From assembly GCA_023473545.1 (NCBI GenBank), contig JAMCXO010000002.1, positions 6,340-70,339 of the forward strand: a DNA stretch of 64,000 nt, in the 5' to 3' direction. The position numbers and the translations under genes were made by a program. Under the pieces are notes generated by a model. The model was given only the letters and a program-made list of their open reading frames with translations. It was not told where the DNA came from and searched no databases. Source of the DNA: Patescibacteria group bacterium. Its GTDB lineage: Bacteria; Patescibacteriota; Microgenomatia; Levybacterales; UBA12049. Numbering within the stretch: the first letter of the stretch is position 1; the number at the start of each line of letters is the position of its first letter. Shown one piece after another: positions 22,576 through 50,462 of the stretch.

Positions 22576-22650
22576 TCCGGTGTGGCTCAATGGTAGAGCG
22601 GCTCCCTGTTAAGGAGATGGTTGTAGGTTCGAGTCCTACCGCCGGAGCCA
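22576..22650 (+). tRNA. tRNA-Asn (anticodon GTT) with encoded CCA.
   Basis: Hand-folded cloverleaf: acceptor TCCGGTG/CGCCGGA (one G-U pair), D-arm GCTC/GAGC, anticodon loop CTGTTAA, T-arm GTAGG-TTCGAGT-CCTAC, discriminator G + CCA. Confidence 0.85.
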
Positions 22651-24111
22651 AAGTTGACGAGAGGCGTAAAAAGCTATCTTGTCAAACGGATTTATCCAGT
22701 CATATCGGGCTTTTTTACCCTTCAGTTCTAAGTTCTGAAGTGCCATCTTCAAAAGTAGCCGTTTTTCGTGGGCTTCAGAACTCTCAAAGACTTTTCCAGC
22801 GTTTTCAGCCAGCTTTAGCAGGTAAGATGAGGTGATATAGTATTCCTCATCGGCAAATTGTAGCTTCTCAATTTTCTTGTTGATAGCCTTTTGTTTTGCC
22901 CGATACTCTTTTCGTTTTTTCTCATAGTAGCTCTCAGTAATACTGCCGTCTATTTTGTCTTCCCAAGCCCGCTCAATGCGGTTCTCGTATTTTTTGTATT
23001 CCGATTGGTAGCGATTAAGCAGGCTTTGATGAAACTCTGATTTGTCCTTATGTGAGCTTTTCAGGGAAGTGGCTATATCCTCAACTACATCAGGGGGCAT
23101 TTGGAGCTTGTCAAACAGGCTTACAAACTGTTTGGTTAAGTCGTCTTCTGTTAGCCACTCAGCCCCGTGTTTACCGTTATATTGAGTGCAGTGGTAGTAG
23201 TGATAGACATTTCCGCTTTTCTTTATCTTACGCTCAGGCGTAATCATACAACCGCAGTCGGCACACCTGATTAAGCCTCTATAAGGAAAAGCCAAGCCCG
23301 CATACTTAAAGCGTTTTTTGTTAAACCCTGCTTTTATATCCTGCACTTTGTCAAAAAGTTCTTGGTCAATTACTCGGTCGTAGTTGTGCGTGTATTCTTG
23401 CCCATCATAAAGCATTGTCCCGCAGTAAAAGGGGTTTTTGAGGATAAAATCAATCTTGCCTTTGGAAAAGTCAAAGCCAAACACTTCTTTAATTTTGTTT
23501 CTTACTTCAAGCATTGAGTAACTGCCTGTGGAATACCACTGATACATTTTCTCAACTATCTCTGCCTCTGGTTCGTCAATGCCTATCCATTTTGAGCCGT
23601 CCTCTCTGGTTATATTTTTGTAGCCGTAAGGGGCTTTACCAGGATACTCGTTTTTGCTTATCTTGAACTTGGCGGTATTGATAGCGTCTTCTTTGAGGCG
23701 GTTAAGGTATTGCTTAGCAAGAAAGACCTTCAAGTCCCAATCCTGAATATCCCTGCCAACGCTATCTTTGTTGATAACAAGGTGGTCGTAAACAAAGTGA
23801 ATTTCCTTGCCATAGTCCAGCCGTAGTTCATCAATCTTAACGGCATCTCGGTAGTTTCTGGTTATGCGGTCAACTCGGTAGGAAATGATAACTTTTATGT
23901 CGTCGCTTGCCTTAACAAACTCAATCATTTCGTTAAAGCGTTTGCGTATCTTGTAGTCGGCACTTTCGCTAAAAACAAACTCTTTGACCACCTCAAAATC
24001 TCTTTTGACCGCATAATCTCTAAGTTCAGGGAGTTGAATGTCCTTGAGCGATAAGCCTTCTTTTTCTTGTTTGAGTGTTGATACTCTGGCTAAAATTACG
24101 GCTTTGGTCAT
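22636..24111 (-). CDS. Large serine recombinase (integrase): resolvase catalytic domain, recombinase domain and zinc ribbon. Its 3' end overlaps the tRNA-Asn 3' end.
   Basis: N-terminal resolvase motif (AVILARVSTLKQ...SLKDIQ; YRVDRITR), C-terminal zinc ribbon (RCADCGCMITPE) and coiled-coil. Confidence 0.85.
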   Translation of the reverse strand: MTKAVILARVSTLKQEKEGLSLKDIQLPELRDYAVKRDFEVVKEFVFSESADYKIRKRFNEMIEFVKASDDIKVIISYRVDRITRNYRDAVKIDELRLDYGKEIHFVYDHLVINKDSVGRDIQDWDLKVFLAKQYLNRLKEDAINTAKFKISKNEYPGKAPYGYKNITREDGSKWIGIDEPEAEIVEKMYQWYSTGSYSMLEVRNKIKEVFGFDFSKGKIDFILKNPFYCGTMLYDGQEYTHNYDRVIDQELFDKVQDIKAGFNKKRFKYAGLAFPYRGLIRCADCGCMITPERKIKKSGNVYHYYHCTQYNGKHGAEWLTEDDLTKQFVSLFDKLQMPPDVVEDIATSLKSSHKDKSEFHQSLLNRYQSEYKKYENRIERAWEDKIDGSITESYYEKKRKEYRAKQKAINKKIEKLQFADEEYYITSSYLLKLAENAGKVFESSEAHEKRLLLKMALQNLELKGKKARYDWINPFDKIAFYASRQLWLRR

Positions 24112-24112
24112 A

Positions 24113-25483
24113 TCAGTTCAAAATCATAGCCTCAACTTGTTTTTTTGCTTCATTTAATAACTTAGAGGCTTCGGTTTTTAGTTTTTCTACTTCTTGATAT
24201 TTTTCCATAACTTTATTTGAAATATCTTTCTGCTTTTCTAGTGGGGGTAAAGGTAATAAGAAGCTCTGTATTGTAGGAATTGTAATGTTGCCTTGAATTG
24301 CCCCGATACGCTCTCTTTGGACTAGTAATTTTGAAATATCGCTATTCAGCCAGACTGATGCATAATTGTTATTAAGTTGCTCATTAAGCCTAAACTTAAT
24401 CATAAAAGAGCCATAAGCAAAGCCGTCAGCTTTTTTAGGAACTACCGCTACTATACCTATGCTTCCACTTCTTGAGATGAGCAGGTCATTTTCGTAAACA
24501 AAACAGTTGCCTATTTCTTTTTCCTTACTTTTTGGTAGATGAACAACATCAGTTAAATCTATATGATTAGGTTTTAGATTTAATATCCTAAGCAATGGTA
24601 TACCGTCAGCCATATAATCGTTTTTAACAGAAGCCCCGTAACGGATTTCGGTTATATAGTTACCAAGCTCTTTAATCGGGTATTTGCTACTCTTGAGTTG
24701 GTTTATGGTCGTCGCAAACTTTGGATTGTGATAATAGGGGTCTTGGCGGTTGCCATCTAGGTCTTGTGAGTTGACGGTATAGATTTTTTCTTCCTCTGGC
24801 TCTTGGTAGTCTATGCCTAGCTGTTGCCTTACAAAGCCATCAATAGAGCTTAGTAGCTCGTCGGCTTGTTTTAGTTTTTGTTCTCTTGTTTCATAGGCTT
24901 TTTTTAATAAGTTGGTTATCTGTTTTTGTTTCTCTTCTGGCAATATGGGTATTAGCAGGTCTTCAACATCTTTAGTTTGTAATCTGGGCAATGTATTGCC
25001 CGTCATCAAGTAAGATGTTTGATTGACAACTAGATGAGAGCTAAGAAAAGCAAAGAGATAGTAGTTACTGCACTTGTGGGCTTCCAAAATATGGAACTCA
25101 GTTGAACATATCCCCTCGGTTGTAGCTAAGTGAACTTTGTTTAGGTATGGTCGTAATTTTGGAAAAAGAATGTTGCCAGCATTAAAGCTAAACGCACTAC
25201 CAAACTCTTTGCCTTGATCAACATCAGAAGCTATACCCGTATCACCTTCTATATTTTCAAGACCAAAATAGGGCGTGTCTTCGCTTGCTTCGCTAACAAT
25301 ATCTCTTTTGAATGTTGCTACTTGGCTAAGAGGCAAAACATCACAACTGAGTGATTTAATTCTTTTGACGGCATTTAGCCTAGTTGGGTGGTATGCACTA
25401 GGGTCAAGTCTTCCCTCAAGGTCATTGTAATTAACAAAATAAGTGTTCATATTAACCCTTGTAACCAGGTGTATTTTTAACAA
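24113..25483 (-). CDS. Restriction-modification specificity subunit (HsdS-like, two target-recognition domains). The true start is probably the internal Met at about 25450.
   Basis: Two TRD halves, each followed by a conserved coiled-coil spacer (EEKQKQITNLLKK...; LEKQKDISNKVMEKYQE). Confidence 0.8.
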   Translation of the reverse strand: MLKIHLVTRVNMNTYFVNYNDLEGRLDPSAYHPTRLNAVKRIKSLSCDVLPLSQVATFKRDIVSEASEDTPYFGLENIEGDTGIASDVDQGKEFGSAFSFNAGNILFPKLRPYLNKVHLATTEGICSTEFHILEAHKCSNYYLFAFLSSHLVVNQTSYLMTGNTLPRLQTKDVEDLLIPILPEEKQKQITNLLKKAYETREQKLKQADELLSSIDGFVRQQLGIDYQEPEEEKIYTVNSQDLDGNRQDPYYHNPKFATTINQLKSSKYPIKELGNYITEIRYGASVKNDYMADGIPLLRILNLKPNHIDLTDVVHLPKSKEKEIGNCFVYENDLLISRSGSIGIVAVVPKKADGFAYGSFMIKFRLNEQLNNNYASVWLNSDISKLLVQRERIGAIQGNITIPTIQSFLLPLPPLEKQKDISNKVMEKYQEVEKLKTEASKLLNEAKKQVEAMILN

Positions 25484-27278
25484 ACCGCTTATACTCCTCT
25501 CGGATTTCCGTTAGGTCGTTCTTTGGGTCTTTTCTGCCCGTTGCGTCGTAGCCTATATGGTCGGCAATAGCCATAAAGATAGGATAATTACCTAGTTTTT
25601 CGTTATCGCTTTTGCGTCTGAGGAAAACCAGAGAGGACTTAACCCCAGCTCCAAAGTGAGCAAAGGCAAATTGTGGTAGGGACACAATCGCTTCTATCTG
25701 GCATTTGTCCATTATGTAATCCCTTACATACTGCAAAGAGGAGTTAGATAAAATACCGTCGGGCAAGACTATGGCAATCCTGCCCGTTTTGGGTTTGACA
25801 AAGTTCACACAACGCTCAATAAACAGAATTTCTGTTTTTTGGTTTTTCTTGCCTTTGCCAAGCTCGTAATGGTCAAGGTAGTTTTTCTCGGTTGATTTAA
25901 CCGTTGCCCCAAAAGGGGGATTGGTGAGAATTAGGTCAAAACGGTCTTTGCCAAACTTAGTGTGCAGGTCGTTTATCTCGCTAAAATCTCTCAAGCTGTC
26001 GGTGCTGATGATATTGGTGTGTCCGTCGTCGTGGATAATCATATTCATCTTGCAGACCCTTGCTATCTGGTCGTTTATCTCAATACCATAAAGGTTATTC
26101 ATCGCAAAACTATGCCAGTATTCTTTGGCTTCCCAGTCGTCGTAGTTTGCCTCTGCGAAGTTTCTCACTTCATCAAGCGAGTTGAGCAAAAAGCCCCCGC
26201 TACCGCAAGCGGGGTCTAGGACTAAATCGCCTCGTTGCGGGTTCATCATTTCAACGCAAAACCTGATGATTTCTCTTGGGGTAAAGAACTGTCCCATCTT
26301 GCCCTTAAAGAAGTCTTCCATAAACCGCTCAAAAGCAATTCCTTTGGTGTCTAGGTCAATTTTGTTAATAGCTAGCCCCTGTAAATGTTCTACAACGCTG
26401 TAAACAACTTTCGGGTCAAGCCTGATGTCTTCCTTAAAGACTTCGCTGTCTTCCTGTTTGGCTTTGAGGTAAATAGAGTTGACCCGCTTAAATACTTCGT
26501 CGGCTGTTTCGTGTGTGCCAATTTGGAATTTGTAAGGCTCGCCTCGTTTGGTTAGCTTTTCGTCTCTTAACTTGCAGAACAAAAGTTTAGACACTTCATC
26601 AAAGGCGGTTGTTGGAGCTAATTTGCCACCTTGCCAGACAGTATCGTGGCTCTTGCCAAGAGCGGTTATCAACTCATCTTTGGAAACGGTTTTAAGCTCT
26701 TTGTCTTCTTCTCCTTTAATAAACCTGTATTTGGGCGTTCTGCCGTATTTAACGGGAATATCGGCAATGACATTTTTCTCTCGCTCGCTTGGCTTAAAAC
26801 CCGCAATATCAAAAGCAGTTTTGGTCGTGCCAGCTACCACTATGGCAAACTTGGCTCTTAGGCTGTTGGCGTTACCAAAGGCTTGCTCTATGGCTTGCTT
26901 AAACTCGGCGTCGGTTACCCCGTCTTTTTTGCACTCAACGATAAGGTAGGGGGTCTTGAGGTCATCGTCTTCGTAAATAACAATATCTGCTCGGTCTTCT
27001 GGGGTTCTTCTTGGGACAGTTACCTCAATGTCAATCTGGTTTTGGGGATATTGGTAGTCAAGGACAAGCTCAACAAAATAGGAAGCTCTAATCGTTTCTT
27101 CTGGGTTTTTGAACGAGGTTGAGTAATCCCTTGAGCAATGGTAGATAATGCGGGCGTTATCGTCAGTAAAAGAGATTAAGCCCTCTTGCTTGCCTCTTTC
27201 AATGTTTCTTAAAAAGATTGAGCCTCTGTCGTTGTTATTTGTCATTTTTCCTTTCATAACTGGTAATAAAGCGGTCAA
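25452..27278 (-). CDS. Fused restriction endonuclease-methyltransferase subunit (BcgI A-like): N-terminal PD-(D/E)xK nuclease (HSDR_N-like) plus gamma-class N6-adenine methyltransferase.
   Basis: Nuclease motif D(IVIYEDD)...LIVECKK in the first 120 aa; MTase motif I LDPACGSGGFL; motif IV LTNPPFG. Confidence 0.8.
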   Translation of the reverse strand: MTALLPVMKGKMTNNNDRGSIFLRNIERGKQEGLISFTDDNARIIYHCSRDYSTSFKNPEETIRASYFVELVLDYQYPQNQIDIEVTVPRRTPEDRADIVIYEDDDLKTPYLIVECKKDGVTDAEFKQAIEQAFGNANSLRAKFAIVVAGTTKTAFDIAGFKPSEREKNVIADIPVKYGRTPKYRFIKGEEDKELKTVSKDELITALGKSHDTVWQGGKLAPTTAFDEVSKLLFCKLRDEKLTKRGEPYKFQIGTHETADEVFKRVNSIYLKAKQEDSEVFKEDIRLDPKVVYSVVEHLQGLAINKIDLDTKGIAFERFMEDFFKGKMGQFFTPREIIRFCVEMMNPQRGDLVLDPACGSGGFLLNSLDEVRNFAEANYDDWEAKEYWHSFAMNNLYGIEINDQIARVCKMNMIIHDDGHTNIISTDSLRDFSEINDLHTKFGKDRFDLILTNPPFGATVKSTEKNYLDHYELGKGKKNQKTEILFIERCVNFVKPKTGRIAIVLPDGILSNSSLQYVRDYIMDKCQIEAIVSLPQFAFAHFGAGVKSSLVFLRRKSDNEKLGNYPIFMAIADHIGYDATGRKDPKNDLTEIREEYKRFVKNTPGYKG

Positions 27279-27438
27279 GGTCGGGTTTGTTTATGCGGTA
27301 TTGTTTACCCGCTTTATACGCCTTGAGCTTGCCGTCCTGTATCCAGCGATAGACCGTCAGATAAACCACCTTGAGCATTTTTGCCACTTCTTCTATGGTG
27401 TAGTATTTTTCTTCTGTCATATTAGCTGTATTTAACAT
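27235..27438 (-). CDS. Excisionase/MerR-like HTH DNA-binding protein.
   Basis: YTIEEVAKMLKVVYLTVYRWIQDGKLKAYK matches excisionase-family HTH proteins; the location in a mobile element supports it. Confidence 0.55.
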   Translation of the reverse strand: MLNTANMTEEKYYTIEEVAKMLKVVYLTVYRWIQDGKLKAYKAGKQYRINKPDLDRFITSYERKNDK

Positions 27439-28594
27439 TATTTAACATTTCTTCTTGATTTGCAAGTAGTTTTAATGGCTCAAAATCAGTTATCTGCTTT
27501 CGGAGTAGAGAGAATACGCTAACCTCATCAGCATAGTTAAGTTTTTGGATTTTCTTGTTTAGACTATACCAGTAGTAATTGCCGTGTCTTTTAGTCATCT
27601 GCCTGTAATCCCTTACACCAATTTCCTCAAGCAACATTCTGAAGCCAGTAAGCTCAAGAGCTTGAGTGGGTTTCAGTTTTGGGTTTGCTACCAATAGTCT
27701 CTCAAAGAACTTTTTAGGGCTGTCGTATTGATATGTCAGTAAAGTCGGATAGGCTTCTTCAATCTCGTTGATGTAATAAAGCAATACCCTTTTAGCCGTA
27801 TCTTGGTTAAAGATGTTTGTAAAAGTTGGTTCTACTTTTTTACCAATTTTGTTGAGGATTTGGTTGATTTTCTGCCGTTTGTTTAGCCGTATCTCAACTC
27901 GCAATACCTCAAATGGTTTTCGTTGGGTCAGAACATCAAATAAGCCAAGCTGCAGGGCATTATCCTTTTCTTCAGCTCGTTTTTCGCTAATTTTAGCTTG
28001 CTCTAAGTCCTTGATTTTGTCGTAAAAAACAATCTCAAACGAGTTAGCCCGATACTTGAAGCTATGCCCCTCGTTCCTAAAATCAGTTCTGTTTGTATCC
28101 AGCCGTTTATTGATATTGAGCTTGGTTAGTTGTTCAAGGTAAGTATAGGGCGTCGTATAGTCAGTTAAGGCTATATTTTTAGAGTAATGGACTGATGAAA
28201 CGGGAGCGTTTATCAGGTTTTTCTCAAAGAGGTAAACACCCATTTCTTTTAGGACGGCTTTAAGTTTTTGGATGATAGTAGGAAAATCAGTGTCCGTTAG
28301 CTCGTCAAAGTTATTGCCGTAAAGCAGTTTTGGAATAGAAAATTCAATTTTAAGCGGCATCTCAAAATTACCCTCTCGGTTTATCCGCTTGGTAACAGTT
28401 AGTCTGGGCTTATAAAGACCTCTCTTAAGTTCATTTGCAGTTGGGTTTTGCTTGCAAGTGATATTAGACCTACCACCCAAACGATAATAGCCAGTAGTTG
28501 GGTCAGTAAGCCCTCTGGTTGACGGACTAAAAAAGTCAGGTTCAAATATCGTATACATACCTGTATTAAGGGTTAAAACGATTGTGTCTATCAT
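27422..28594 (-). CDS. Hypothetical element protein, possibly a replication/initiator-type protein; no confident family.
   Basis: 390-aa ORF overlapping its neighbours on both sides in the element cargo. Confidence 0.3.
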   Translation of the reverse strand: MIDTIVLTLNTGMYTIFEPDFFSPSTRGLTDPTTGYYRLGGRSNITCKQNPTANELKRGLYKPRLTVTKRINREGNFEMPLKIEFSIPKLLYGNNFDELTDTDFPTIIQKLKAVLKEMGVYLFEKNLINAPVSSVHYSKNIALTDYTTPYTYLEQLTKLNINKRLDTNRTDFRNEGHSFKYRANSFEIVFYDKIKDLEQAKISEKRAEEKDNALQLGLFDVLTQRKPFEVLRVEIRLNKRQKINQILNKIGKKVEPTFTNIFNQDTAKRVLLYYINEIEEAYPTLLTYQYDSPKKFFERLLVANPKLKPTQALELTGFRMLLEEIGVRDYRQMTKRHGNYYWYSLNKKIQKLNYADEVSVFSLLRKQITDFEPLKLLANQEEMLNNVKYS

Positions 28595-28859
28595 AGTTGT
28601 TCATTACTTCTTCAAACCGCCTTACAATTTCGTTTTCTATTAACTGGGCAAACTCTCGGTTAATCGGATAAAAAATGTTGAGGCTTCTATCGGCTACCTT
28701 TTTAGTGGGGTAAACGAGCCTGTAGCTCCCATTAGGACGGGTCATAATGCCGATTGAGCCCAGATAGAGGTTTTGGTCTAAGACAAAGCTCGCAAATGCC
28801 ACTAAGCCGTTTTGCGGTTTTATAGGTATGATTTGAATTTCACTTAATCGGTTTGTCAT
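28566..28859 (-). CDS. SpoVG-family protein.
   Basis: LVAFASFVLDQNLYLGSIGIMTRPNGSYRLVYPTKK aligns with the SpoVG core (KAFASITLD..FVVHDIRVI.G.NGLFVAMPS.K). Confidence 0.55.
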   Translation of the reverse strand: MTNRLSEIQIIPIKPQNGLVAFASFVLDQNLYLGSIGIMTRPNGSYRLVYPTKKVADRSLNIFYPINREFAQLIENEIVRRFEEVMNNYDRHNRFNP

Positions 28860-28946
28860 AAGTCCTCGTTACATTTTCCCTGCGGTCAATTTCTATAAGC
28901 ACAGCAAAGAAATCAGCTAATCGCTTCTTTTCTTCAGGCGTCAAAA

Positions 28947-28967
28947 CAAACCCCTTTTTCAGGGGTT
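28947..28967 (-). terminator. Candidate intrinsic terminator on the - strand: stem AAACCCC/GGGGTTT with a 7-nt loop, followed by GTTTTG. It lies about 110 nt downstream of the 482-aa gene.
   Basis: Perfect 7-bp inverted repeat seen in the sequence, with a U-rich tract on the transcribed strand. Confidence 0.35.
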
Positions 28968-29075
28968 TAATCTTCTCAAGCTGAATGACTTTGCCGTTTT
29001 CCATTAAGCAAAGTCTAAGAAAAGAGGTGTGAGCTGAAGTTGTATTGCAGTTAGCTAACTGTTAGCTAATGCTGA

Positions 29076-30524
29076 CTAGAGGTATTTGGGATTTAGTTGA
29101 ACGGTTGATTTGTTGAAAATCAAAAGGTCATTAACGCCTGTCTTTGAGGCTATATGCTTAGACAGCCCATCGCAAGCGGGATAAAACTTATTTTTATTTT
29201 CTTTGGTTAGTTCCTCGTCTTTAGTATCCTCTATGGTTTCTATAACTTCGTCCCAAGACCACTCTTTTTTACGGCTCTTATCGTCTTTTAGCAGTAATTC
29301 AAGCAGTTTTGCCCTGAAGCTGTTTTTGTTTAGTTTGACCTTTTTGCCTTCAACATCCAGCTCGCCTTTCTGGGCATTGTAAGTAACCCTCAATTTTACT
29401 TTGCTTTGGTCTATTTTTAATTCGTCAGTTTTAGGCTTACTCTTGTTTTCCTCATTGGATTTTTGGCGTTTTTCAAATTCAGCCTTAAGAGCTTTATAGA
29501 AATCGTCAAACTTTATAAGGTCAATTCTTATATCTATGTTGCCGTATCCCACAACATCATCATTGTCATAATTGGCTTCCAGTGCGATACCTTCTCTAAG
29601 TAAGTATTGAGCACCTTCCCAGCGGTGCTGTTGGTAGCTTTTCCTTGTGCCTATGCTATCGTAGGGAAACAGCTCTAAAAATCTACCGATATACGGATAG
29701 GGAAATGATGGAATTACTACAGTGGTGCTTCTAGTCATCTGAAGTTGCTGGTCAATATCCGAGCAAACATCAAGGATTTTGAGAAGGTTGAGCCAGTCAA
29801 GATTATTGGGCTTTGATTTTTGTTTCAGCAAGTATTGTCCATACCAGTCATCAAAACCATCGTGGCATTTAACGAGAATAAAATTGGGATTTTTTGGTTG
29901 TTGATTAAGTGGGAGTAAACGATTGGTTTCTCGCCAAACAGTCAGGATTTTTTCTTCTTCTTGGAGTTTGTTCAAAATGCCGTATATTTCCTCTCTCTGA
30001 AACCCATCAAGACCGTTATTAGCACTTTTATAAAACAATTCTGTGGTTTGCCCTTTGACCGTAGCCTTTTTAGCTTCAACCAATGCCTTGAGAATAAGGT
30101 CTAGCTTTTCTTCATAGGTAATCAAAGTATCATTAGCGAGCTTTGTCGGGCTATCTGTTGGCTTCTTCCCCGTAAACTCTTGATATTCAGGTTCTTGTTG
30201 GATTTTCCAGAAATAGTCGTCAAAAGCGGGTAAAAGTTCAATATGCCAGCAGCCGTCGTCTTGCTGATAAGGTGGGTCGTAGGGGTCAAGGTCTTCAACG
30301 ATTTCTACTCTACTTATCCCGCTTGGCACTTGTAAAACCTTCAAAATCTGCTCATCCTTTTCCAGCTTGGTAAATAACTGTTTCAGTTCAATATCTCTAT
30401 ATTTGCGGTTAAGGTCGTTTGTCGGGTCTATTATCAACGGTTGACCCGATGGGGCTAATACCCGTGCATCGTTAATCGCTTCCAGTAGAAAATAAAGTTT
30501 TTCCTTGCCGTCCATCATAATCAT
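29076..30524 (-). CDS. Hypothetical 482-aa protein; no recognisable domain.
   Basis: Long uninterrupted ORF; it is the first gene of the co-directional cargo block. Confidence 0.5.
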   Translation of the reverse strand: MIMMDGKEKLYFLLEAINDARVLAPSGQPLIIDPTNDLNRKYRDIELKQLFTKLEKDEQILKVLQVPSGISRVEIVEDLDPYDPPYQQDDGCWHIELLPAFDDYFWKIQQEPEYQEFTGKKPTDSPTKLANDTLITYEEKLDLILKALVEAKKATVKGQTTELFYKSANNGLDGFQREEIYGILNKLQEEEKILTVWRETNRLLPLNQQPKNPNFILVKCHDGFDDWYGQYLLKQKSKPNNLDWLNLLKILDVCSDIDQQLQMTRSTTVVIPSFPYPYIGRFLELFPYDSIGTRKSYQQHRWEGAQYLLREGIALEANYDNDDVVGYGNIDIRIDLIKFDDFYKALKAEFEKRQKSNEENKSKPKTDELKIDQSKVKLRVTYNAQKGELDVEGKKVKLNKNSFRAKLLELLLKDDKSRKKEWSWDEVIETIEDTKDEELTKENKNKFYPACDGLSKHIASKTGVNDLLIFNKSTVQLNPKYL

Positions 30525-30775
30525 TACTTTTTCAAGAAATTATACTGTCTCTATTTTATCATTGTTTAACACTCTAAGGAAGGATTTTTAGAGGTTAGGC
30601 AGTAGCAAGGGCGGGTTGTTTCAATCCCAAGTTTTCAAAGAGGATTTTGAGGTCGCTAAGGGTTATACTAAACTCTAGTTGTTGGTTGCAGAACAAGTCT
30701 TTTAGGGGGAGCACTAACGTACAGAAATAACCAACAAATTACACAAACGAACACAGCCTCAATCCTAACATCCAC

Positions 30776-30815
30776 TTGACAGATGTAAGGAATAATTGGT
30801 ATAATCCTTACATCT
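30776..30815 (+). promoter_or_regulatory. Strong sigma-70 promoter (TTGACA, 18-nt spacer, TATAAT) overlapped by a perfect 11-bp inverted repeat AGATGTAAGGA-N13-TCCTTACATCT. Putative operator controlling the Fic gene.
   Basis: Consensus -35 at 30776..30781 and -10 at 30800..30805. The IR arms at 30781..30791 and 30805..30815 straddle the -10 element and the predicted TSS. Confidence 0.55.
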
Positions 30816-30835
30816 AATATTAAAATGTTAGGCTT

Positions 30836-31993
30836 ATGAAAATCGGTAAGCTCATCCAACAACCCAGTGGGTATCAGGCATTTATCCCAGACAAATTCCC
30901 TCCAAAAGAGCAAATTGTTCTGAACTCCAAAACCCAGCAGCTTCACGCCAAGGCTGTGCTTATGCTGGGTAAATTAGATGGCATTACTCAATTACTTCCT
31001 GACCTGGATTTTTTCATTTTTATGTATATCCGCAAGGAAGCGGCTAAGTCAAGCGAGATTGAGGGGACTCAAGCCACCATTATTGATGTCATTAAAAGCG
31101 AGGCACAAATTGAAAGCCGTTTTCCACAAGATGTTGAAAGAATCATTCACTATATCAATGCTATGGAATATGGCTTGAATCGATTGGAAACCTTACCGTT
31201 ATCACTTCGGTTTATTAGGGAAATCCATAAGGTACTGATTGGTGGTACGATTGACGCTCCCGGTAAAACACCAGGAGAATTTAGGACCTCCCAAAATTGG
31301 ATCGGCGGAGGTTCTCCCAATACTGCTAAATTTGTACCACCAACACACGCAGAAATGAACCGATGCCTAGATGACTTTGAAAAATTTTTGCATGCTACCA
31401 ACGAGTACCCGCCACTTATTAAAGCAGCTTTAGCGCATGCCCAATTTGAAACCATCCACCCGTTCCTTGATGGTAATGGCAGAACTGGCCGGCTTTTAAC
31501 TACTTTTTATCTTTGTAAACTGGGTATCCTTGAAAGGCCAGTACTTTACCTATCTGAATACTTTTTGAATAACCAAAAGGCATATTACGGGTCGTTAAAT
31601 TCTTATCACCAAGAAGATGCTGATGTTTTCGGTTGGCTTGATTTCTTTTTAGATGGGGTGGCTATCATTGCGACAGAGGCAATTGAGGCGTCAAAAAAAA
31701 TCAATATTTTACGCCAGAAAGATACTATTAAGATTCAATCTTTGGGGCGGAGAACAAAAACAGGCATGATAGTTTTGGAAAATCTTTTTAAGCTTCCAAT
31801 TATCAGTGTCAGAAAAGTCGAAGAATGGACGGGGCTTTCTCGTCCCCAAGCCAACGATCTAGTTAAAAAGCTTATAGAGCTAGGAATTCTTGAGCAAAGA
31901 AATAAAAATATCAAGTATGACAGGGAATTTTGGTATAAAAAGTATCTTGATGTTTTCGTGAGTAAAGAAGAAATTAAAAAATCAAATGAATAA
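30836..31993 (+). CDS. Fic/DOC family protein (AMPylation-type motif) with N-terminal inhibitory motif.
   Basis: Canonical HPFLDGNGRTGR (HxFx(D/E)GNGRxxR), an upstream SxxxEG (SSEIEG), and a C-terminal winged-helix-like region. Confidence 0.85.
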   Translation: MKIGKLIQQPSGYQAFIPDKFPPKEQIVLNSKTQQLHAKAVLMLGKLDGITQLLPDLDFFIFMYIRKEAAKSSEIEGTQATIIDVIKSEAQIESRFPQDVERIIHYINAMEYGLNRLETLPLSLRFIREIHKVLIGGTIDAPGKTPGEFRTSQNWIGGGSPNTAKFVPPTHAEMNRCLDDFEKFLHATNEYPPLIKAALAHAQFETIHPFLDGNGRTGRLLTTFYLCKLGILERPVLYLSEYFLNNQKAYYGSLNSYHQEDADVFGWLDFFLDGVAIIATEAIEASKKINILRQKDTIKIQSLGRRTKTGMIVLENLFKLPIISVRKVEEWTGLSRPQANDLVKKLIELGILEQRNKNIKYDREFWYKKYLDVFVSKEEIKKSNE

Positions 31994-32157
31994 ACCTGAC
32001 TTTACCCTCGATAAAATCAAATTTGCCATTGATCAACCGACATTCAAGAAAGCAATGGCGCTATACGAAAGTGGCAAGGTTACCCAAGTCGAAGAAAGTA
32101 TTCGATTGTGTATAGGAGTTGTAAATGGCACAATGTCAGCGCATTCGATAAATTGAT
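31987..32157 (+). pseudogene. Short ORF (56 aa) that looks like an N-terminal fragment of a larger protein; probable gene remnant at the decayed end of the element.
   Basis: MNKPDFTLDKIKFAIDQPTFKKAMALYESGKVTQVEE, then a stop. Over 1 kb of AT-rich non-coding DNA with further out-of-frame fragments follows. Confidence 0.25.
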
Positions 32158-32553
32158 AATTTTATCAGTAGACCTAATGGATTAACTTTTGAAAAGATTT
32201 TTACAAAATCTTACACAAATTTTGGCTGCCACACTTCTATAAACTTCGTTAATGAAAAATTATGGGATATTTTCCTTTTTATATAGTGAGGTCTTTCAAT
32301 TAACTCCATCTTCCATTGAGTAAAATCGCCATATTTTCTCAATATACCGACTTTTTACCTGGATCAAACAAGCTGCCCAACGAAAGCAATACAATATTTC
32401 CTTTTACCAACAACAGTGGAATATCATTAAAGATGCCATTGCCCAGCAAATGAAACTTGAATTAACTGCTACCTAAGTGCGAAACTCGTGTAATTCTCCA
32501 ATTATTCCTGCCATTTTTTATTCCTTTCTATTATAGTGTGATATAATCCAGCT

Positions 32554-32805: not shown

Positions 32806-33205
32806 GAAAAATATTTAATGTGCGATATTATTTTATTTTTTAATTATCTCTTTCTTCTATTTCTTTCTTATTTAGGGATTGAGATAATTAAGTCTTCATG
32901 GCCTACTAATAAAAGTACGGCTATGATCGCTCTCATTCCGTTATTATTGGGATTTTTCTTCTTTGTTTTCCCCACAACGCATAGTGGGATTTATAGTTCT
33001 ATGCTTTGCATTCTTCCTTAATTTTTAAAGAGCCACTAACTACTTCTTTTTTGTTATATACAGTAATACAATATCTTTTTGGGTCTGGGAAATCAAGGTA
33101 GAACTAAAAAATGTGGGTGAATCTTGTAGAGTTTTTTCATTTCCTCTTTGCTTATAATAATTATGACTGATTAATCGCAACGGAACTTTCTGTTATAATT
33201 TCATC

Positions 33206-34287: not shown

Positions 34288-34413
34288 TGACAAATGCCCT
34301 TTGCCCTTTTTAAACTTGATACTATTAACCAAAAAATAAATCATGCGCGCGGATAGACTTTTTAAAATAGCGCCGGCTCCTGTCGGCGAGATTTATTTTA
34401 AAAACCTTACCTG

Positions 34414-47624: not shown

Positions 47625-48215
47625 ATGGACAAAGAGAAAGAGGGGGAACCAAAAACAGAATTAACAATCCTGCCTCCTGCTGTTTCGCTGGCACTGGGCA
47701 CGTGGATAACAACCAATATCTTATCACAAGATAGAATCAACGCGCTACAGCAGCAGATTAAATCGGTTGGCGACCCGCTATTTAAAGGAGTGTTGGAAGA
47801 GGCTATGTCACAACTGCAGGAAAACCTAACGGGATTGGCAAGAGATCTCCGGGAAGGAAGGGTTGCTCTCGCGCAAAATCCTCAAAGCCCACACTTTGAT
47901 CAATCGCCACACTTTATATTTCAAAACGTAGAGCCGCCAGCACAAATGCCTACTGAACTGCCAGAGGGAGAACTATTTTTAGGCAATCCTCAAGCAACAA
48001 TGTTTATACTCACGTTTGCCGAACGTTTTGATAATTGGATTACTCCATTCGGACTCGACAGGAGAATCTATGCAAATTTATTACCGGTGAAAAAAGAAGT
48101 AGATGGACTAAAAAATGTTCCTAATGGTCTAATGATTAATATTGACAAAGATCGTAAAACGGCATCCTTAAATCCAGCGCCTGCCCAAAATCTTCCTGAA
48201 ACTTCGGACCTATAA
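47625..48215 (+). CDS. Hypothetical protein with higher-than-local GC.
   Basis: ORF only; no family recognised. Confidence 0.35.
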   Translation: MDKEKEGEPKTELTILPPAVSLALGTWITTNILSQDRINALQQQIKSVGDPLFKGVLEEAMSQLQENLTGLARDLREGRVALAQNPQSPHFDQSPHFIFQNVEPPAQMPTELPEGELFLGNPQATMFILTFAERFDNWITPFGLDRRIYANLLPVKKEVDGLKNVPNGLMINIDKDRKTASLNPAPAQNLPETSDL

Positions 48216-49259
48216 AACATACTTTGCTCCTTTTGTGCTTCCGTGCTTTTTGATAACCCCATGCTCTATCAATGCCTTAAGCTCATTTAAAATCGTATCC
48301 TCGGAAACCATTGGGAAAAGCATGTAGAATGCCTTATTCTGAAGATAGCCTGTTTCCTGAATATACTCGATGATTTTTAGCTGGCGCTCGGAAAGAAGAA
48401 CCGGTTTTCCGCCAAGTCTCTGCCTAAGCTTTCCGTCAACCGATATTCGCTCAACCTTTTCTTTTATTTTCGAAAGTTCGATCCCAAGACCCTTTGTGAA
48501 ATACTCAAGCCAGAGCGTTAAATCCCCGCCCTGGCTTTCAACGCTTTGTAATGCTCCATAATAACTATTGGCGTCTTTGTCAAAATACTCCTCGAGCGAG
48601 AAAAACTTTCTGATGTCATATCCTTCCATAAACAAAATAAGCGTTGATAACGCCCTCGCGACCCTGCCGTTACCATCTAAGAAGGGATGAATCCGCACGA
48701 GTTCATAATGAATAACTCCGGCTTTCAAAACAGGGTGTATAGTTTCCGCCGAAGACTCATCTACAAACGCAACTAAATCCGCGATTTGGGATTCTACCTG
48801 CTCGGATGGCGGAGGCCTAAAAGAAACCTCCAAGGTCTGATTATTTTTAATCACAACCTGCGTCTTTCTGTACTCTCCGCACTTTTCCCGCGGCAGAATT
48901 TTTTCCACAGTCATTCTATGCAATTTCCTAATCGTAGACTCCGTAATTCTTCCTTCCGTACTGCCGACTGCAAATTCCGAAATATAATCCATCACTTTTC
49001 TGTAATTTATAATCTCTTGAATATCACGCTCCCTGCCGATAACCTCCTGTCCCAAAATAACCCTTTCCGCCTGATCCAAGTTTAACCCATTGCCTTCTAT
49101 ATGGGTACCATAATGAACGGCTCGGACCAGGGCGCTGTCCCTAAACTGCTTTTCGTAAAAAGGTAAAAGAGGCGCGCCCTCAATAATTTCGCGGCATGCT
49201 TCAATAGCACCAATGTTTTTTAAAATTGCGTTGGTGATGGTAAATTTAGGCTGATACAT
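48210..49259 (-). CDS. Fic/DOC family protein (second copy in the window).
   Basis: HPFLDGNGRVARAL Fic motif and a C-terminal winged-helix-like region. Confidence 0.8.
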   Translation of the reverse strand: MYQPKFTITNAILKNIGAIEACREIIEGAPLLPFYEKQFRDSALVRAVHYGTHIEGNGLNLDQAERVILGQEVIGRERDIQEIINYRKVMDYISEFAVGSTEGRITESTIRKLHRMTVEKILPREKCGEYRKTQVVIKNNQTLEVSFRPPPSEQVESQIADLVAFVDESSAETIHPVLKAGVIHYELVRIHPFLDGNGRVARALSTLILFMEGYDIRKFFSLEEYFDKDANSYYGALQSVESQGGDLTLWLEYFTKGLGIELSKIKEKVERISVDGKLRQRLGGKPVLLSERQLKIIEYIQETGYLQNKAFYMLFPMVSEDTILNELKALIEHGVIKKHGSTKGAKYVL

Positions 49260-49577: not shown

Positions 49578-50462
49578 TTATAAAAAAGAGGCCATTATTT
49601 TAGGAATTTCATCTGCTAAATCCGAAGCGTTAAAGTAATATCCTACCCGTTTGAATAAACTATCTCCTGCCATTTTGTTAAAAAAACTACCGGCCAAGGC
49701 TGAAAGAAAGGCGCCGTTTTTACAGTAAAGCGCAGCCACCAGTCCGGATAGAACATCCCCTGTTCCGCCTTTTGTCATACCCGCGTTCCCGCCGTTGACC
49801 CCAGCGCATCCTTCGGTTGATGAACAAACAATATCATTCTGGCCTTTAAGCAAGATCACGCATTTGTACTTTCTCGCTATTTCTAAAACGACTGAATCAT
49901 GAATCAGGAATTTTGAATGATGGTTCTTATTCCTTATTCCTGATTCCTGATTTTTAATTCTTAATTCGTTCTCAAATAGAATCTCAAACTCCTTACGATG
50001 GGGCGTTAAAATGGCATTTCGAGGAATAATTCTAGGATCCATAACCTGAAGGCTCCCCCCGTCAATTATCCATTTTTTGCCGGGATATTTTTTTAAAAGA
50101 GTCTCCGTCAGCTTTTTTGTGTCGTCATCCCCCTCTTCCTGCCCTTCTAAACGCGGCAGGCCAGGACCGATCAAAACACAATCCGCCTCCTTGATATAAC
50201 TATCTATTTTGTCTCTGGGAACAATAATGCCGTCTCTAAATTCTTCTTTGCACCTCTGGACTATAGCGTTGTTTTCCGGGATAGAGGAGTAAAAAACCAT
50301 ATCAACAATTCTTGAAGCTATCTTTAAAGACCATAGAGACGCCGCGTGAAACAATCTTGATCCGCCAATAACAAGAAGCTTTCCGTTCTGTCCCTTGTGG
50401 GAATCTTTTCTCGGGAGATAGAGTTTCTTCAGTTCTTCCCTGCTAAATGGATACATAAACAA
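49578..50462 (-). CDS. nnr: ADP-dependent NAD(P)H-hydrate dehydratase (YjeF C-terminal domain family) with an internal low-complexity insertion.
   Basis: HKGQNGKLLVIGGS and GTGDVLSG motifs. The insertion (RIKNQESGIRNKNHHSKF) is encoded by the tandem micro-repeats at about 49900..49970. Confidence 0.7.
   Translation of the reverse strand: MFMYPFSREELKKLYLPRKDSHKGQNGKLLVIGGSRLFHAASLWSLKIASRIVDMVFYSSIPENNAIVQRCKEEFRDGIIVPRDKIDSYIKEADCVLIGPGLPRLEGQEEGDDDTKKLTETLLKKYPGKKWIIDGGSLQVMDPRIIPRNAILTPHRKEFEILFENELRIKNQESGIRNKNHHSKFLIHDSVVLEIARKYKCVILLKGQNDIVCSSTEGCAGVNGGNAGMTKGGTGDVLSGLVAALYCKNGAFLSALAGSFFNKMAGDSLFKRVGYYFNASDLADEIPKIMASFL

Follow-up and report, generated by a model that had tools for sequence, protein, structure and literature searches.

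We analysed a 64,000-nucleotide (nt) stretch of contig JAMCXO010000002.1 (assembly GCA_023473545.1) from a Patescibacteria group bacterium, referred to below as the window, and concentrated on a gene encoding a Fic AMP-transferase and on the promoter directly in front of it. The encoded protein of 385 amino acids (aa) is identical to a database record named 'Fic family protein [Patescibacteria group bacterium]' and its homologues number in the thousands, many of them at 77-93% identity; no close relative was found in the viral contigs searched. It matched the Pfam Fic family with E=2e-21 and contains the Fic/Fido active-site motif HxFx(D/E)GNGRxxR, as H208-PFLDGNGRTG-R219. It also contains the (S/T)xxxE(G/N) motif of class II Fic proteins, N-terminal of the Fic core and inside the Fic_N match (residues 36-114), as S72-SEI-E76-G77. 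S72, E76 and G77 were invariant among 32 homologues, as were H208 and the D-G-N-G-R core. Both the catalytic motif and the intramolecular inhibitory motif that an earlier, sequence-only reading of this DNA had described are therefore present.

Comparison with defined models placed the protein closest to SoFic of Shewanella oneidensis (SO_4266/mloA; PDB 3eqx, 9tcl). The PADLOC SoFic model, PDLC03963, which describes a stand-alone gene, matched with E=2.3e-109 over positions 5-358 of 361, and the closest solved structures were those of SoFic (9tcl/3eqx, E ~1e-32 over residues 43-369) followed by that of CccR (7xux, E=4e-17). Pfam reported no domain in the C-terminal region; the SoFic alignment, in contrast, runs through residue 369, and an AlphaFold model built from 32 close homologues, of which only the C-terminal domain was used, predicted the order H-E-H-H-E-E (helices 304-317, 325-332 and 336-348; strands 322-324, 352-354 and 364-367) of a SoFic-like winged helix-turn-helix (wHTH). 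The predicted local distance difference test (pLDDT) scores were 83-92 for residues ~290-350. The model also predicted, at low confidence, a long N-terminal helix (residues 31-53, pLDDT ~50) whose position matches that of the SoFic dimerisation helix (L28-L50), and by analogy this Fic probably dimerises through it.

The fic promoter consists of an exact TTGACA and an exact TATAAT (30800-30805) separated by 18 nt, with an extended -10 TG at 30797-98. It was the only exact match to TTGACA-N16-18-TATAAT in the 64 kb, where simulated windows contained 0.04 on average, and the sole 12/12 site in a 10-kb promoter scan. Interleaved with it is an inverted repeat, AGATGTAAGGA-N13-TCCTTACATCT (30781-91/30805-15), whose 11-bp arms match perfectly across a 13-nt spacer. 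The sequence-only reading had found both promoter and repeat, and all of their elements were confirmed; two of its statements about them needed revision. It had the repeat covering the -10 element and the transcription start. The start, predicted at ~30811-13 because starts usually lie 6-8 nt from the -10, is indeed expected to fall within the right arm, whereas the two arms flank the -10 hexamer and cover only its last T. It had also overlooked two further half-sites: the repeat is the inner pair of four half-sites in alternating orientation, with 9-bp cores CCTAACATC (30764-72), GATGTAAGG (30782-90), CCTTACATC (30806-14) and AATGTTAGG (30824-32) and the consensus CCTWACATC. The centres of the half-sites are spaced 18, 24 and 18 bp apart, i.e. 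they form a 69-bp nested palindrome that is symmetric about 30798. Half-site 1 ends 2 nt 5' of the -35 hexamer, half-site 2 starts at the final base of the -35 and half-site 3 starts at the final base (T) of the -10.

Table 1. Features of the fic gene, its promoter and the adjoining downstream reading frame (window coordinates).
Feature	Position	Strand	Remarks
Half-site 1 (CCTAACATCC)	30764..30773	.	Directly 5' of the -35 hexamer; same register in most homologous loci
-35 hexamer TTGACA	30776..30781	+	Invariant in 16-locus phylogenetic footprint
Half-site 2 (AGATGTAAGGA)	30781..30791	.	Left arm of perfect inverted repeat; in all loci having the architecture
Extended -10 TGgTATAAT	30797..30805	+	In the spacer separating half-sites 2 and 3; TATAAT invariant in footprint
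Half-site 3 (TCCTTACATCT)	30805..30815	.	Right arm of perfect inverted repeat; directly 3' of the -10 in all loci having the architecture
Half-site 4 (AAATGTTAGG)	30823..30832	.	Overlaps weak Shine-Dalgarno-like AGG just 5' of ATG
fic gene, 385 aa	30836..31993 (ATG to stop)	+	Class II Fic AMP-transferase, SoFic type; Pfam Fic_N and Fic; PADLOC SoFic
Inhibitory-helix codons, (S/T)xxxE(G/N)	31049..31066	+	Residues 72-77, SSEIEG
Fic active-site codons (HPFLDGNGRTGR)	31457..31492	+	Residues 208-219
Codons for the winged helix-turn-helix at the C terminus	31745..31936	+	AlphaFold model; aligns to SoFic C-terminal domain
Recognition helix RPQANDLVKKLIE	31841-31879	+	Residues 336-348; AlphaFold model; co-varies with half-site
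56-aa open reading frame	31986..32156	+	Truncated 5' remnant of SWIM zinc-finger gene; overlaps fic stop codon; Pfam SWIM match

An 11-bp inverted repeat is not rare in itself: with spacers of 3-30 nt, four perfect ones were found in the window against 0.85 expected. What makes this one significant is therefore that it overlaps the promoter, that there are two further half-sites and that the arrangement is conserved in other loci. The other three perfect repeats lie at 34359-34404, where the arms flank a GC-rich terminator-like hairpin (34371-34388), at 49901-49946 and at 32840-32891. Window-wide, half-sites (exact or with one mismatch) were no commoner than in shuffled sequence (24 vs 27.6), and no paired half-sites were found in the 64 kb besides the four at the fic promoter, the excisionase and recombinase genes included. 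The regulon of further sites that had been envisaged was thus not seen in the window.

A scan of one genome per species gave 50 loci with Fic homologues of 23-92% identity, from assemblies labelled Patescibacteria, Chloroflexi, Actinomycetota, Omnitrophota, TM6, Alphaproteobacteria and others. When the 100 nt upstream was read locus by locus, the layout was kept in nearly all of them down to ~40% identity. We also counted half-sites in the 110 nt upstream of 48 loci (homologues of 38-92% identity), as 9-mers with at most one mismatch on either strand. The best 9-mer of each locus had four copies in 21 of the 48, three in 18 and five in one, so that ~40 of the 48 have the layout; only 2 of 480 shuffled controls reached four copies. 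The half-sites usually lie at about -72(+), -54(-), -30(+) and -12(-), i.e. in alternating orientation, and their register with the hexamers is fixed: site 1 begins 12 nt before the start of the -35, site 2 adjoins TTGAC and site 3 the -10, and in most loci site 4 lies 23 nt after the start of the -10. In the 16-locus footprint the hexamers and the half-site cores were conserved while the intervening spacers varied, and all but four of the relatives at 72% identity or more retain the 12/12 promoter. Two loci lack site 1. Eight others (L006, L014, L028, L030-L033 and L047) have their ATG 8-13 nt after the -10, and in these site 4 is absent and sites 1-3 are kept; they are probably leaderless-mRNA variants of the same cassette. 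The inner pair, sites 2 and 3, is the invariant core. Two loci come from metagenome-assembled genomes (MAGs) labelled as archaeal, Bathyarchaeia (L015) and Micrarchaeota (L039); they carry the bacterial-type consensus promoter and a Fic 46-77% identical, which points to mis-binning or recent transfer.

The half-site sequence itself differs between subgroups of these loci, the types being CCTTACATCT, YGTWACATCT, CTTAACATCT, CTTGACATCT, GTTTACATCT, GTTGTTTC.. and ATCTTTTCTTA. The copies inside one locus change in concert (mean distance 0.19 within loci vs 0.34 between loci), and they change together with the recognition helix of the adjoining Fic: SRPQ is paired with CCTWACA, SRPR with YGTWACA, SRP[A/S] with CTTWACA and SRQ[S/G] with CTTGACA. 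A partial Mantel test, with divergence of the N-terminal and Fic domains as the control, gave r=0.39 and p=0.0005 for half-site distance against recognition-helix distance, and r=0.10 and p=0.16 when run the other way round. Some positions of the helix appear to set specificity, one example being residue 339 (Q, R, A or S) set against base 2 of the half-site. No neighbouring gene was conserved across the 48 loci, the most widespread, a SWIM-domain open reading frame (ORF), occurring in 5 of them, and DNA homology between loci spans from site 1 (window 30760-30768) to the fic stop codon. The fic gene is therefore the only component that always accompanies the operator and, given the co-variation, Fic itself is most likely to be the protein that binds the operator and represses its own gene.

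We weighed this reading against a regulator acting in trans, for which the sequence-only reading had offered a candidate, the neighbouring excisionase-like HTH_17 protein (27235-27438), a host factor being the other possibility. The gene for the former is only 3.4 kb away on the same island, and operators that overlap promoters are generic. However, the operator is found 5' of fic in ~40 loci that have no neighbour gene in common, the excisionase-like gene included; the half-sites diverge in step with the recognition helix of Fic; and the window holds no further paired sites, even at the excisionase and recombinase genes. We therefore consider a trans regulator very unlikely, and the HTH_17 protein is not supported as the binder.

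Action at the level of RNA, with sites 3 and 4 forming a hairpin in the 5' untranslated region that masks the ribosome-binding site and so controls translation or stability, is in our judgement more improbable again. Each of these two sites is complementary to the other, and the AGG 5' of the ATG is overlapped by site 4. Transcription is predicted to begin within site 3, however, which leaves most of that arm out of the transcript, and sites 1 and 2 are upstream of it altogether. In addition, the predicted 5' end folds no better than shuffled sequence (z=-1.39), it matches no Rfam family, and the eight leaderless relatives have dropped site 4 yet keep sites 1-3.

Less probable still is that the nested palindrome serves recombination or mobility, as a cassette boundary or as an attachment site of the large serine recombinase encoded at 22636-24111. 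The attachment sites of serine recombinases are imperfect palindromes, the cassette occurs in many different contexts, and inter-locus DNA homology starts exactly at site 1. Among the closest relatives, however, the homology starts 130-150 nt upstream of the ATG, i.e. it runs 55-75 nt beyond site 1, so site 1 is not the junction. No matching site was found at the other end of the cassette or near the tRNA-Asn/recombinase end, and an operator would be expected to keep a fixed register with the -35 and -10, as is seen.

The weakest alternative, that the palindrome is a chance match or a functionless generic intergenic repeat, can draw on the excess of perfect 11-bp repeats given above and on a hairpin repeat in marine metagenomes that has the same 9-mers, but it is hardly credible for a palindrome that has no other copy in the window, coincides with the sole exact consensus promoter and is conserved with co-variation in ~40 loci. 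The metagenome matches came from a scan with the pattern GATGTAAGG-N5-30-CCTTACATC, whose 18 specified bases are too few for a database of that size. Among the matches listed, at least 50 with a 13-nt spacer belong to the unrelated hairpin repeat; the only matches that adjoin fic are those with a 15-nt spacer that also have the promoter (3 of 7), the palindrome in each case lying 22 nt upstream of the gene. The hairpin repeat itself, GATGTAAGGCATCTTCAAGATGCCTTACATC, has a 14-bp stem and a 3-nt loop and occurs many times in marine metagenome contigs (L052-L109), often twice per contig (e.g. L056 34-64 and 4971-5001; L092 1240-1270 and 2862-2892); it has the 9-mers in common with the operator by coincidence.

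We consider it likely that 30764-31993 is a self-contained, negatively autoregulated fic cassette, and the suggestion of the sequence-only reading that this is an operator-overlapped, probably autoregulated gene gains support from the recurrence of the layout, the co-variation with the helix, the lack of any other gene that travels with it and the precedents described below. The promoter (12/12 with an extended -10) would be very strong and recognisable in almost any bacterium. On entry of the cassette into a cell, Fic would build up until dimers form; dimers on the half-sites would then cover the DNA from just 5' of the -35 as far as the ribosome-binding site, -10 and transcription start included, and so block RNA polymerase, bridging either the inner pair (24 bp) or the outer pairs (18 bp). 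Such self-repression would clamp the concentration of a protein whose toxicity, in SoFic, needs dimerisation, and would hold fic expression at a low level independent of the host. The internal SxxxEG inhibitory helix would be a second restraint on the enzyme.

Self-repression of this kind has a precedent in CccR of Yersinia pseudotuberculosis (YPK_0951; PDB 7xux), a class II Fic with a helix-turn-helix (HTH) at its C terminus that represses its own promoter by binding AGATAATCAT-N26-ATGATAATCT at the -35/-10, as established with lacZ fusions, electrophoretic mobility shift assays, DNase footprinting and mutants of the palindrome; CccR must dimerise for this (PMC9755527). The operator described here is alike in that the inverted repeat overlaps the -35 and -10 of the gene's own promoter, an overlap that is conserved in the homologues, and in that both repeats are bounded on the outside by the ATCT of their half-sites (AGAT...ATCT). 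However, CccR is a more distant relative than SoFic, its dimer is back-to-back, unlike that of SoFic, and it is an effector secreted by a type VI secretion system that AMPylates FtsZ, a context with no counterpart here (no genes for such a system were noticed among the ORFs examined around fic).

The second precedent is SoFic, which AMPylates EF-Tu. AMPylation needs dimerisation (dissociation constant ~0.75 uM), and binding to the first 100 bp in front of the SoFic gene was seen with the dimer and not with the monomer; no palindrome is mentioned in the preprint (bioRxiv 10.64898/2026.07.09.737422). In the SoFic promoter fragment given there (Table S2), the 140 nt next to the start codon contain, by our reading, five exact copies of ATCGACAT/ATGTCGAT, and three of these fall in the best-binding fragment. 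Fragment F3 of the same table contains, 200-270 nt upstream of mloA, a long palindrome, CACGTGTATAGATAGTCGTATTATCTATACACGTG, that is unrelated to the ATCGACAT half-sites and may be the site of another regulator. The SoFic half-site is also found 5' of fic in E. coli S10 and 5' of a homologue on a Salmonella plasmid; a Picosynechococcus plasmid homologue has a different triple repeat upstream. In E. coli S10 (L174 1060-1231) the region consists of tandem units of ~70 bp, each with ATGTCGAT/ATCGACAT half-sites and a AAACATGTTTA palindrome, and the fic gene, annotated as frameshifted, is followed by a second Fic family gene; in the Salmonella Infantis plasmid the half-site region lies at L172 ~290-345. 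The fic gene in the window is thus like SoFic in being closest to it among solved structures, in its full-length PADLOC match and in the repeated half-sites of its upstream region, and differs in coming from a Patescibacteria MAG. SoFic is a single-gene anti-phage system (EcSofic), EcSofic is toxic, and both phage protection and toxicity dependent on the catalytic histidine have been reported only for the E. coli and Shewanella homologues. By analogy, the Fic of the window would have EF-Tu as its target and an anti-phage function. As for the Sofic-AS1 pair, whose small antitoxin gene (~47 aa) lies immediately downstream, no conserved small ORF that could act as such an antitoxin was found downstream of fic among the 48 loci, as judged without the AS1 sequence.

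Two further comparisons are less close. CbFic2 of Coxiella burnetii (CBU_0822) is also a class II Fic with a C-terminal HTH, and how it binds DNA is linked to its oligomeric state as well as to how AMPylation and deAMPylation are balanced; however, it is described as a secreted effector that targets histone H3 of the host, and it is not reported to act at its own promoter (PMC10628234). The sites described here are, in contrast, sequence-specific and embedded in a promoter. The layout also resembles the operators of type II toxin-antitoxin and C-protein systems, in which a mobile, potentially toxic gene has a strong promoter and a cassette-encoded repressor acts on palindromes at the -35/-10. 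It differs from toxin-antitoxin and restriction-modification systems in that toxin and putative repressor are one polypeptide, with no separate antitoxin gene and with inhibition that is intramolecular (the SxxxEG helix).

Several points weigh against the autoregulated cassette as we have drawn it. (i) Binding and repression by this particular Fic are deduced from sequence comparison. (ii) Operator and gene are physically linked, and part of their co-variation therefore reflects shared descent and not function. (iii) The two best precedents do not have the same operator: CccR recognises two 10-bp boxes 26 bp apart and not four half-sites with centres at 18, 24 and 18 bp, and the SoFic half-site is ATCGACAT and not CCTWACATC; spacing and polarity here differ from those of CccR as well as from the SoFic/E. 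coli arrangement. (iv) The NCBIfam SoFic equivalog model NF046030 gave 157.9 bits against a cut-off of 550, so that on this score the protein is a relative of SoFic from a separate subfamily, not an orthologue. (v) The full-length AlphaFold model is poor (mean pLDDT 53), too poor for a fold search or for dimer geometry, and the dimer may accordingly bridge half-site centres that are 18, 24, 42 or 60 bp apart. (vi) The search for further half-sites covered 64 kb of the genome only.

Fic AMP-transferases of the SoFic type are toxic, widespread and now counted as single-gene anti-phage systems, and how they are carried safely is only partly understood. That class II Fic-wHTH proteins can repress themselves is known from CccR and suggested for SoFic; what the present analysis adds is an operator of four half-sites that is family-wide and a recognition code that is predictable. 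The single published case, CccR, and the qualitative result on binding by SoFic are thereby turned into a testable family-wide rule, under which the recognised words are predicted to be CCTWACATC for this Fic and ATCGACAT for SoFic and the E. coli and Salmonella homologues. The combination of a consensus promoter with self-repression may also explain how the cassette functions across many phyla, as expression would be independent of the host. At least seven half-site types are visible among the loci. A wider view, which we regard as possible but doubtful, is that the SoFic family consists of many one-gene cassettes, each a toxin and its own repressor, with mutually orthogonal helix-operator specificities; occupancy of the operator could then be coupled to an oligomer-dependent switch between AMPylation and deAMPylation, and release from DNA, or titration by incoming infection DNA, could be part of the trigger.

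The sequence-only reading had placed fic at the edge of the mobile element upstream; the gene may lie either inside that island or beside it. The fic block (~30705-32133) is inherited independently of the upstream island genes, and its downstream partner gene is truncated. A full-length SWIM gene (242-248 aa) lies directly downstream of fic in four loci (L003, L004, L005 and L013); homology to these stops at ~32133, which marks a rearrangement breakpoint, leaving the 56-aa ORF of Table 1. This ORF was considered as an AS1-like antitoxin and rejected, being a truncated SWIM gene. The island adjoins a tRNA-Asn gene (22576-22650) and spans 22576-30524. Its large serine recombinase gene overlaps the 3' end of the tRNA gene by 15 nt, no repeat of that end was found near 32134-32420, and no attachment-site repeat was found for the island. 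The island also encodes S and M subunits (MADS-like/type I) unaccompanied by an R subunit, the excisionase-family HTH protein, a SpoVG-like protein and several proteins of unknown function, those of 390 aa and 482 aa having no family match. The window contains a second Fic gene at 48210-49259 on the minus strand, which has TGGTATAAT upstream but no comparable inverted repeat; its product of 349 aa matches Pfam Fic only, and its best solved relatives are FICD, 4rgl, 8uqu and CccR (7xux).

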